Assembly (NCBI RefSeq): GCF_001677475.2 | Contig: NZ_CP015229.1 | DNA length: 64,000 nt | Source of the DNA: Escherichia coli | GTDB taxonomy: Bacteria; Pseudomonadota; Gammaproteobacteria; Enterobacterales; Enterobacteriaceae | Strand: one strand, 5' to 3' | Shown here: one piece after another, positions 54,323 to 55,720 of the stretch | How positions within the stretch are numbered: the stretch's first letter is position 1 | Layout: the number at the start of each line of letters is the position of its first letter | Program-made: the position numbers and the translations under genes | The notes under the pieces: generated by a model | What the model was told of the DNA's origin: nothing | Seen by the model: the letters and a program-made list of their open reading frames with translations, nothing else | The model's database searches: none

Positions 54323-55369
54323 ATGAGTATGGTTGATTTATATTCGCCTACACAGCTTGTGCAGGTGGCTAATGCTGAAGATGTGCAAAAAAAATTAAAT
54401 GCGTTGTTTACCAGTTTGTTTTTCACTCGCTCGGTAATGTTTGAATCGAGAGACATTATTCTTGATACGATCGACGATCCAAATATCCCGATCGCGGCGT
54501 TTTGCTCTCCTATGGTGGGCAGTAAAGTTTCACGAGATGAGGGATACGAATCAAAAACAATTCGCCCTGGCTATATGAAACCGAAAAGCAGTATTGATCC
54601 AAATAAGTTAGCTGTGCGCCCTGCTGGTGTATCACCTGAGCAATACAATGCTTTTGGGGCGCGTAATATTAAAGTTAAACAGGCGATTGTAAATCAGGCT
54701 AAAGCTATTCGTGCACGTATTGAATGGCTTGCTGTTCAGGCAATCACAACGGGGAAAAATATCATTGAGGGCGATGGTATTGAACGTTATGAGCTGGACT
54801 GGAATATAAAACCACAAAATATCATCACTCAGTCTGGCGGTACTGAGTGGTCAGGTAAGGATAAAGAAACTTTTGATCCAAATGATGATATTGAGAGCTA
54901 CGCAGAATTTAGTGAGGGCGTCACTAATATCATCATTATGGGTGGTAATGTATGGAAGAAATACCGTTCATTCAGAGCGATAAAAGAGGCTTTGGATACC
55001 CGTCGTGGTTCTAATTCCGAACTGGAAACGGCCCTTAAAGACCTTGGTGATTCGGTGAGTTTTAAAGGGTATATGGGCGATGTTGCGATTGTTGTTTACA
55101 GCGGGCGTTATACCGACGAGGACGGAACAGAAAAACATTTCCTTGATCCTGATTTGATGGTGCTTGGCAATACGGCTCTTCAGGGGATTGTCGCCTATGG
55201 CGGTATTCAGGATCCGGAGCTAATCCGAATGGGGCTGACTAAAGCCGAACTTGCACCGAAAAACTATATTGTGCCTGGTGATCCGGCTATTGAATATGTG
55301 CAGACACATTCAGCACCACAGCCAATACCGGCCCGCATCAATCGTTTTGTTACCGTTCGCATTGGCTAA
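54323..55369 (+). CDS. Major capsid protein, lambda gpE family
   Basis: 348 aa from MSMVDLYSPTQLV (lambda gpE: MSMYTTAQLL), collinear over the full length. The blocks ITQSGGTEWSGKDKETFDPNDDIESYA and LDTRRGSNSELETALKDLGDSVSFKGYMGDVAIVVYSGRY are nearly identical to gpE as I remember it. The SD AAAGAGG is present, and an alternative start is at 54329. Confidence 0.85.
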   Translation: MSMVDLYSPTQLVQVANAEDVQKKLNALFTSLFFTRSVMFESRDIILDTIDDPNIPIAAFCSPMVGSKVSRDEGYESKTIRPGYMKPKSSIDPNKLAVRPAGVSPEQYNAFGARNIKVKQAIVNQAKAIRARIEWLAVQAITTGKNIIEGDGIERYELDWNIKPQNIITQSGGTEWSGKDKETFDPNDDIESYAEFSEGVTNIIIMGGNVWKKYRSFRAIKEALDTRRGSNSELETALKDLGDSVSFKGYMGDVAIVVYSGRYTDEDGTEKHFLDPDLMVLGNTALQGIVAYGGIQDPELIRMGLTKAELAPKNYIVPGDPAIEYVQTHSAPQPIPARINRFVTVRIG

Positions 55370-55378
55370 GGGGGAGCA

Positions 55379-55720
55379 ATGGCTACTCATTACACTGAAC
55401 TCATGTCTGGCACTGAAGCACTGGTTACTACGCTGGGGATATTTTCAGCCAATAAAGGGGTAATACCTGCGTTTACGCCACTGATGCAGGAAGATGCAAC
55501 TGGTGCGCTAGTGGTATGGGATGGAACGAGCGCAGGCAAAGCGGTTTATGTTTCCGCTGTACAAATCGACACAGCGAAAAAAACACAGGCACAGGTTTAT
55601 AAGACAGGTGTTTTAAATGTTGATGCTCTGAACTGGCCTGAGTCTGTAAAAGAACTGTCGGCAAAGGTTGCCGCGTTTGTTGGCTCAGGTATTTCTGTTC
55701 AGCCGCTGGCTCGTGTGTAA
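55379..55720 (+). CDS. Head decoration protein, lambda gpD family
   Basis: 113 aa. AFTPLMQEDATGALVVWDGTSAGKAVYVSAV and VYKTGVLNVDALNWPES...AAFVGSGISVQ parallel gpD [31 protein letters not shown] and FYKSGTFRYEDVLWPEA...TAFAGTAISIV. The SD GGGGGAG is upstream. Confidence 0.8.
   Translation: MATHYTELMSGTEALVTTLGIFSANKGVIPAFTPLMQEDATGALVVWDGTSAGKAVYVSAVQIDTAKKTQAQVYKTGVLNVDALNWPESVKELSAKVAAFVGSGISVQPLARV

Follow-up and report, generated by a model that had tools for sequence, protein, structure and literature searches.

Phage-inducible chromosomal islands (PICIs) in general interfere with their helper phages. SatelliteFinder counts 'capsid morphogenesis' among the five core components of a PICI (de Sousa et al. 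2023, PMC10085698), and 21 of 29 reference Gram-negative PICIs have a major capsid gene (Mageeney et al. 2023, PMC10111431). The prototype, EcCICFT073 (NC_004431 1,377,930-1,388,654), carries the capsid gene c1499 and the head-decoration gene c1500 (Fillol-Salom et al. 2018, PMC6092414); the crystal structure of c1499 dates from 2008 (PDB 3BQW). Deletion of c1499 or c1500 left lambda interference and transfer unaltered with three helpers, and the packaged EcCICFT073 DNA was phage-sized (PMC6092414). Here we analyse a related island in a 64,000-nt stretch from Escherichia coli (GCF_001677475.2, contig NZ_CP015229.1; "the window", to which coordinates refer unless stated otherwise), and in particular its two adjacent genes, E and D, which encode homologues of the lambda major capsid protein gpE and the decoration protein gpD. 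Such a pair is an already published, standard feature of E. coli PICIs; it has been annotated, deleted and crystallised in sister islands and is no stand-alone discovery. The capsid gene is common in Gram-negative PICIs, often together with a decoration gene, and the real gap is the function of the conserved pair, to which no paper found in our literature search assigns one. The question is sharpened by the separate lineage of satellite E, by the co-evolution of E and D and by the nearest copies, which lie inside a helper E gene. If PICIs that supply a shell exist, they would form a class between the classical PICIs, which steal whole heads, and the capsid-forming PICIs (cf-PICIs), which carry a complete head module.

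EcCICFT073 is collinear with the window island (int, alpA, DUF4222, primase, replication origin, small open reading frame (ORF), SSB, E, D, cos, packaging gene and 93-aa gene). It shares the E-then-D order and the lambda cosN, has no portal, protease or TerL gene, and its c1499 and c1500 are 55% and 54% identical to the window E and D. In contrast, its integrase is only 24% identical and uses another attachment site, tRNA-Pro being the site here. EcCICFT073 hijacks the helper TerS with RppA, whereas the window island encodes a full-length Nu1-type TerS; its third operon gene encodes an unrelated 137-aa protein in place of the AlpA-like helix-turn-helix (HTH) protein of the window island; and the central block of the window E is nearer to lambda than that of c1499. 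A second described island, Eco567.11capE of E. coli NRG857c (11capE; PMC10111431), is like the window island ~11 kb in size. Its E, D and AlpA-like proteins are 98.8%, 95.6% and 96% identical to those of the window, and its replication and late modules show 91-93% nucleotide identity. It differs in being inserted in the E gene of a helper prophage, in its integrase (25% identical) and in having HEPN/DUF262 cargo and no terS, whereas the window island carries TerS and PerC genes at a chromosomal tRNA-Pro. Helper-driven induction and transfer are known for EcCICFT073 and, partly, for 11capE.

More distant systems share single aspects. Ccm of SaPIbov5 (PMC8569155) is also a satellite capsid homologue with the HK97 fold, on an element that has no portal or TerL gene and is packaged via the helper cos machinery. 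However, it has no sequence relation to E, belongs to a Gram-positive host (Staphylococcus aureus) and has no decoration partner; it was shown to form pentons and to convert prolate into small isometric heads, whereas no size change was seen for the E. coli homologue. The cf-PICIs of the EcCIEDL933 type have a related int-alpA-primase backbone and their own major capsid protein, but they carry a complete set of head and packaging genes and build small capsids of their own; of that set the window island shares only TerS. Lambda E and D resemble the window proteins in Pfam families, fold, full-length collinearity and central near-identical blocks. Here, however, the order is reversed and the pair stands without B, C, Nu3, A, W, FI and FII; the satellite-specific parts are the N-arm, E-loop, spine helix and C-terminal third in E and the N-terminus in D. 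The original prediction, made from the letters of this DNA alone, held that a two-gene capsid-plus-cement module fits neither known class of satellite. This view does not survive the EcCICFT073 pair, the capsid gene in 21 of 29 PICIs, the SatelliteFinder core component and SaPIbov5 Ccm. Its novelty had been made to depend on such islands not being already described and on transfer being affected by deletion of either gene; both points essentially go against it, since proteins 98.8% and 95.6% identical are described in 11capE and deletion of the EcCICFT073 homologues left transfer unchanged.

The island encodes full-length gpE and gpD homologues

The E ORF (54323-55369) matches PF03864 (Phage_cap_E) over positions 4-327 of the 329-position profile (E=2.9e-41; 142 bits, cutoff 22.9) and PHROG 29, major head protein (8.6e-89). 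At the level of structures it matches lambda gpE (7VI9/7SJ5; ~1e-77, 8.7e-78) and PDB 3BQW (1.1e-121). E is collinear with lambda E over its full length at 42% identity, and its AlphaFold2 (AF2) model (pLDDT 79.9, pTM 0.80) superimposes on 3BQW with a TM-score of 0.88 and on lambda gpE with 0.82-0.86. Profile and model together indicate, in line with the gpE homology of the original prediction, that E is a full-length member of the lambda gpE family with a predicted HK97-type fold. The reading frame of 348 aa described there is correct, but E almost certainly starts at the second ATG, 54329 (346 aa), instead of 54323, because of the GAGG ribosome site, the cross-genus conservation and the start chosen by the NCBI annotation pipeline (PGAP) in relatives.

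The similarity to lambda E is unevenly distributed. ITQSGGTEW and LDTRRGSNSELETA.KDLG..VS.KG..GDVAIVVYSG.Y, previously pointed out as near-identical blocks, are indeed present in E in near-identity with lambda. Resemblance to lambda E is concentrated in a central block (alignment columns ~160-260; 53-80% identity), and the N-terminal 160 columns and the last ~90 residues have diverged to 14-47% (33-40% for the last ~90). The divergence described for the N-terminal third is therefore real but not confined to it. E is a mosaic, the central block being nearer to lambda E than to c1499 and the flanks nearer to c1499. On the AF2 model, the flanks correspond to the N-arm, the E-loop, the spine helix (residues 108-141) and the C-terminal strands, and the central block to the helices and sheet between them; these domains were assigned by HK97-fold topology on the model rather than on a solved structure of the window protein.

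The D ORF (55379-55720) matches PF02924 (HDPD) over profile positions 2-111 of 116 (2.3e-15; 57.2 bits, cutoff 29.1), PHROG 49, head decoration (1.2e-26), and the structures of phage 21 SHP (1TD0; 2.8e-16) and lambda gpD (7VII; 1.3e-12). D is 32-40% identical to lambda D and 54% identical to c1500, and its satellite-specific N-terminus is 7 residues shorter than that of lambda gpD. By its full-length profile match, D is a predicted head decoration protein of the gpD/SHP family, which agrees with the earlier assignment. gpD attaches only to expanded, DNA-filled shells, through pairing of its N-terminus with the N-arm and E-loop of gpE (PMC5701804). E precedes D with a gap of 9 nt; the order is D then E in lambda and in the five lambdoid prophages inspected, so the reversal noted before holds beyond lambda itself.

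Satellite E forms a lineage apart from phage E

Of 5,426 complete E. coli genomes, 394 (~7%) carry at least 80% of the length of the 1,398-nt E-D segment and 364 match it at an identity of at least 95%; an NCBI protein that differs from the window E by one residue stands for hundreds of member sequences. Among 5.8 billion proteins, the homologues of E form two groups separated by a gap. The satellite group comprises proteins of 344-352 aa that share 50-100% identity with the window E and 40-47% with lambda E, and the phage group proteins of 339-344 aa (one of 350) that share 55-100% with lambda E and 38-42% with the window E. None of the 50,697 phage genome records contains a protein above 44% identity to the window E. 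These comparisons indicate that satellite E is an old, satellite-specific lineage apart from all sequenced phages, and therefore not a recent capture.

Genomic contexts were taken from the encoding contigs and from the E. coli collection; a contig profile search with the alignment of the window E and c1499, which gave highly specific patterns, returned 4 loci. Every E of the satellite group whose context was read lies in an int-alpA-primase island with D directly 3'. These islands occupy tRNA-Pro in E. coli, a chromosomal site in Serratia and a lambdoid portal gene in Edwardsiella; others are those of CFT073, Kluyvera and Superficieibacter. In Cedecea, Kosakonia and three E. coli strains the island lies inside a helper E gene, and the nearest copies of the window E-D pair (96-99% nucleotide identity) are likewise found inside the E gene of lambdoid prophages.

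Two Salmonella enterica loci (L010 and L011) hold one 10.1-kb PICI (99.9% identical, ~2107-12250 in each) with lambda-type E and D inside P2-like prophages. The truncated gene at the right junction is tail-sheath-like in one locus and large-terminase-like in the other, as judged by translation alone. The capsid family of the presumed helper (P2 gpN) differs from that of satellite E, and neither an exact lambda cosN nor a P2 cos was found in this P2-embedded PICI.

One metagenome scaffold (ERZ28600228 scaffold_2787, 4,432 nt) encodes a hybrid E (2801-3829 of the scaffold), of which residues 1-225 are ~100% identical to lambda gpE and residues 226-342 ~100% identical to the window-type satellite E. 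The hybrid gene is preceded by lambda B, C and D and followed by the satellite D and AlpA-like genes. The crossover falls within a 16-nt stretch identical in both parents; because this is below the usual assembler k-mers, the scaffold may reflect true recombination between phage and satellite and not a chimera made in assembly.

E and D are kept together under purifying selection

E and D are adjacent and in the order E then D in 15 of 15 satellite copies inspected, and the reading frames are intact in all inspected copies, which come from seven genera. The identities of the two proteins fall in step (E/D, 86/77, 84/77, 80/68, 85/72, 74/58, 59/52, 59/47 and 55/53%), a pattern that indicates that E and D co-evolve as a pair. 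The ratio of nonsynonymous to synonymous substitution rates (dN/dS) was first computed across genera, where the synonymous sites proved saturated with the E protein still 80-86% identical; for this reason it was recomputed on the E. coli copies. At this unsaturated divergence, E has a dN/dS of 0.035-0.09, D one of 0.06-0.16 and the AlpA-like gene one of 0.014-0.14, values that point to strong purifying selection on E and D. The second AlpA-like gene is also found directly 3' of D in 11capE and in the copies from Kluyvera, Superficieibacter, Cedecea, Kosakonia and Serratia; of the two Salmonella loci, one has an AlpA-domain gene after D.

The promoter scan upstream of E revealed ATTGCAC-N4-TTGCAT-N4-TTCGCAT with a -35-like TTCGCA and a -10-like TAGAAT (54241..54288). 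In an otherwise divergent spacer, TTGCAY-N4-TTGCAY-N4-T(T/C)GCAY is kept in the E. coli, Kluyvera, Superficieibacter and Kosakonia copies, followed downstream by a -10-like box, a GAGG site and the ATG. The triple repeat has a spacing of 10-11 nt and overlaps the -35-like box. It occurs once in the window and is not significant alone, the evidence being its conservation; it is absent from c1499-type islands, including EcCICFT073. The E-D operon thus has its own conserved upstream region, a candidate promoter as judged from the alignment, and the TTGCAY repeats are a candidate activator site, possibly for one of the two AlpA-family proteins.

Organization and class of the island

The features of the island are as follows, with strand and basis of assignment.

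47540..47625, plus strand: tRNA-Pro(GGG) and attL; the repeat, 47598-47625, overlaps the tRNA 3' end (ARAGORN, Rfam tRNA, direct repeat D2)
47807..49066, plus strand: tyrosine integrase; the listed start is a GTG (ORF list)
49566..49772, plus strand: AlpA-family regulator, the PICI induction switch, 68 aa (ORF list, similarity to EcCICFT073 AlpA)
51114-51413, plus strand: DUF4222 gene (Pfam)
51410-53215, plus strand: primase/helicase (Pfam D5_N, DUF5906, Pox_D5)
53229..53451, no strand: replication origin; nine 8-mer iterons GTGAACAG/CTGTTCAC immediately 3' of the primase gene
53503..54044, plus strand: orf81 (PHROG 1231, function unassigned) and SSB gene (Pfam SSB, PHROG, relatives)
between the SSB gene and E: hairpin and AT-rich promoter region (sequence)
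54241..54288, plus strand: candidate promoter/operator of the E-D operon (promoter scan)
54329..55369, plus strand: satellite major capsid protein, gpE homologue, 346 aa (PF03864, PDB 3BQW, lambda gpE)
55379..55720, plus strand: satellite head decoration (cement) protein, gpD/SHP homologue, 113 aa (PF02924, PDB 1TD0 and 7VII)
55732..56115, plus strand: second AlpA-family HTH protein, 127 aa, third gene of the E-D operon (PF05930, PHROG 2790)
56141..56205, plus strand: lambda-type cos (sequence, blastn against the joined lambda ends, exact-match scan)
56305..56859, plus strand: Nu1-family small terminase TerS, 184 aa (PF07471, PHROG 57)
56933..57214, plus strand: conserved 93-aa protein, function unassigned (PHROG 1561)
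57681-58052, plus strand, and 57338-57766, minus strand: accessory end, a PerC-family regulator and a 142-aa ORF, respectively (Pfam PerC 7.6e-23; ORF list)
58593..58620, plus strand: attR, which repeats 28 nt of the tRNA 3' end with 86% identity to attL

By all features that sequence can test, the island is a classical Gram-negative PICI. An integrase lies at one end between flanking att direct repeats, an AlpA-type regulator follows int in the same orientation, and the primase-replicase gene is followed by an iteron origin. The island further carries capsid-morphogenesis genes (PF03864 and PF02924) and a packaging-redirection gene (Nu1-family TerS) with a helper-type cos. At 10,995 bp it is within the small size range of ~10-15 kb and has no other structural or lysis genes. 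Searches with Pfam, PHROGs and tblastn found no TerL, portal, head protease, connector or HNH gene of a cf-PICI in the island or the window. Pfam and PHROGs gave no match to the P4-like Sid, Psu, Delta or Ash/epsilon, and no P2 cos was present at up to 3 mismatches. The island TerS does not match the ~140-aa Rpp, a protein that binds the helper TerS and lacks the TerL-binding C-terminal domain.

The primase is 48% identical to that of EcCICFT073 and 85% to that of 11capE, and the 93-aa protein is 84% identical to the product of the final gene of EcCICFT073. The integrase shares 23.8% identity with its EcCICFT073 counterpart and 38.7% with that of the Salmonella PICI; its true start is probably a few codons inside the listed GTG ORF. 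In the relative locus L015, PGAP annotates an 'integrase' at the corresponding site and an HTH regulator at the position equivalent to alpA. The zone between alpA and the DUF4222 gene is poorly annotated. Nine of the 11 copies of the iteron 8-mer in the window fall in 53229..53451, and the position of this cluster is that described for the PICI origin (PMC6092414). The SSB gene (53745-54110) is apparently frameshifted, with 99 aa against 136-149 aa in relatives; a different frame encodes the typical acidic C-terminal tail (…DEPYGDNIPF) at ~54070-54110.

A different capsid gene is found on a related island in E. coli TK3896 (H20, NZ_AP045043.1 1650135-1661748), which covers 67% of the window island at 93% identity. 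A 'ClpP-like prohead protease/major capsid protein fusion' is annotated there in place of E and D, which suggests that capsid modules of different families are swapped on one island backbone.

Packaging genes and absent head genes

Across the cohesive-end junction, 59 of 65 nt (91%) of the cos are identical to lambda cos by blastn, and the 12-nt cosN, GGGCGGCGACCT, is exact (56172-56183) and present as a single copy in the window island. The sequence downstream of cosN, in the place expected for cosB, is unlike lambda, as expected if the island TerS recognises its own site. TerS is 36.5% identical to lambda Nu1 over 178 aa, aligned to Nu1 residues 3-180/181, and its residues 5-176 are covered by PHROG 57; the C-terminal half is 51% identical to the TerS of a lambdoid prophage. 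An assignment of this gene as an Rpp, as in EcCICFT073, was rejected, as the protein has no similarity to RppA, no match to RppC in the PDB and is a full-length Nu1 homologue. With a lambda-type cosN and its own TerS, the island has all the sequence features that cos-type packaging by a lambdoid helper requires of a PICI. In EcCICFT073 the exact lambda cosN 12-mer occurs twice, once on each strand (42559, plus strand, and 43298, minus strand, of locus L002), in agreement with the report that some PICIs have two cos sites (Fillol-Salom 2019).

Lambda A, W, B, C, Nu3, FI and FII gave no tblastn match in the 64-kb window, where only Nu1, D and E did. Pfam and PHROGs detected no portal, protease/scaffold, TerL or tail gene in the window and no further virion gene in the island, and the absence of head and tail genes that had been claimed for this locus is borne out.

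Possible role of the satellite shell and cement

We tentatively favour a role in which satellite E and D are a working pair of shell and cement proteins that enters helper-built heads and is redundant with the helper E and D; this reading still falls short of an even chance. A lambdoid helper would induce the island via AlpA, followed by excision and replication from the island's own primase and iteron origin, and the E-D-AlpA-like operon would be transcribed from its own promoter. Satellite E, alone or together with helper gpE, would assemble on the helper portal, scaffold and protease into lambda-like heads. The Nu1-type TerS would bind the island cosB, recruit the helper TerL and direct cutting at the lambda-type cosN, and approximately four 11-kb units (43,980 bp, 91% of the lambda length) would fill a normal head. 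After expansion of the shell, trimers of satellite D would lock the three-fold sites of satellite E. The pair would be redundant with the helper E and D in laboratory crosses and pay off when these are missing or limiting, the clearest case of benefit being the sister elements seated within the helper's own E gene; a 'backup copy' idea for the satellite capsid gene has been raised by Mageeney et al. (PMC10111431). Incorporation into particles, the partner proteins and the selective advantage are the parts of this model that we infer.

Several observations fit this proposal. Both proteins are intact, full-length members of their families, are under purifying selection, diverge in step and belong to an old satellite lineage, and their operon has a conserved upstream region of its own. 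The use of a lambdoid helper is supported by sequence comparisons: the cos, with 91% identity and an exact cosN, the C-terminal half of TerS and the location of the nearest copies in E genes of lambdoid prophages. A matched D, homologous to a protein that attaches to expanded shells only, favours the view that satellite E ends up in mature heads and does not act solely in procapsid assembly; the N-arm and E-loop of E and the N-terminus of D, whose counterparts pair in lambda, are all satellite-specific. Redundancy with the helper E and D would explain the null phenotypes of the deletions, and filling with four units, ~44 kb, fits the phage-sized DNA of EcCICFT073. The product 4 x 10,995 = 43,980 bp had been put forward in the original prediction, where the arithmetic is right.

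Other points weigh against the proposal. The sole genetic tests, which concern the 55%-identical EcCICFT073 homologues, gave no phenotype with three helpers (PMC6092414), and a structural role is at best dispensable. With only 42% identity to the helper E and the largest differences in the N-arm and E-loop, satellite E may be unable to use the helper scaffold or portal. The window island lies at tRNA-Pro and not in a helper E gene, so that it would not itself gain directly from being a 'backup copy'. The Salmonella relative resides in P2-like prophages of another capsid family, which a simple lambdoid-helper model leaves unexplained.

In a more far-reaching form of the proposal, satellite E and D would make up the actual shell of the particle, and the island would be a 'shell-supplying' PICI that takes the portal, scaffold/protease and TerL from its helper. 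We consider this form doubtful, yet it is compatible with the old lineage, the co-evolving pair, the purifying selection, the own promoter and the P2-embedded Salmonella relative.

A rather unlikely alternative is that satellite E acts as a Ccm-like redirector, occupying for example the pentons of shells built mainly from helper gpE and thereby reducing head size, with room for one or two units but not for the helper genome; it would apply only with natural helpers outside those tried. Precedents exist, since Ccm is a satellite capsid homologue that sits in pentamers and alters head geometry (PMC8569155) and the Pasteurella PICI PmCI172, which has a capsid homologue, makes small capsids; SatelliteFinder also counts the PICI capsid gene as a capsid-modifying component (PMC10085698). 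Moreover, the satellite-specific regions of E are the peripheral, curvature-sensitive N-arm, E-loop and P-domain. However, EcCICFT073 DNA packaged with lambda was all phage-sized, and deletion of c1499 left interference intact. Action of the Ccm type also needs no matched D, yet D is always kept with E under selection.

Less probable again is interference or defence, in which satellite E, with D, would spoil the gpE lattices of helper or invading lambdoid phages or soak up their scaffold and portal. It would accord with the general interference of PICIs with helpers, and the central block, 53-80% identical to lambda E, could permit mixed capsomers. The window island has a TerS and not an Rpp and may need another route of interference, and in EcCICFT073 the strong Rpp block would mask a weaker capsid effect, so that the negative deletion result is not decisive. 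Nevertheless, lambda plaques were not restored by deletion of c1499 or c1500, it is not evident why a poison would require a co-evolving cement whose binding is limited to expanded shells, and spoiled helper heads would be a lost vehicle for the satellite unless its shells are separate.

That E and D are functionless passengers, helper late genes that were captured and are slowly decaying, is highly improbable: the EcCICFT073 deletions without phenotype, the capture of helper genes in PICI late zones (PMC10111431), the frameshifted neighbouring SSB gene and the one metagenome scaffold that resembles a lambda/satellite recombinant within E could be read in this way, but the idea is contradicted by the selection data (dN/dS 0.04-0.16 in E and D), the intact frames in all inspected copies from seven genera, the lineage distinct from all sequenced phages, the conserved upstream promoter region and the occurrence of the pair in ~7% of complete E. 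coli genomes. The rest of the probability belongs to roles beyond those listed.

Borders and accessory end

The spacing of 10,995 bp is measured from attL (47598-47625) to attR (58593-58620), which are 28-nt direct repeats (family D2). attR differs from attL at 4 of 28 positions, one of which is a C-to-A change in the tRNA-derived part, and the tRNA-Pro 3' end rebuilt from attR after excision might be altered; attR damage of this kind was called typical of PICIs by Mageeney et al. (PMC10111431). The chromosomal gene yejO adjoins attR on the outside, as in L015. An 863-aa autotransporter was considered as Ag43-type cargo and rejected, since it lies outside attR and is this yejO.

An Rfam scan of the island returned the tRNA alone above threshold and no C4/isrK immunity RNA; three sub-threshold miRNA matches lie in repeat or AT-rich DNA and were dismissed as chance. 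The PerC gene differs in position from EcCICFT073 and overlaps the 142-aa minus-strand ORF by ~85 nt; one of the two, the latter without a family match, may be spurious. Between perC and attR there is a tandem (GGCTGGCT)n array of ~7 units (58156-58217). An exact 17-nt repeat, ATGAATAAAAAGGGAAA, occurs in the origin region (53417-53433) and between cosN and terS (56252-56268); ~0.006 such pairs are expected by chance in the island, and the relatives (L015) have only the one copy in the origin region.

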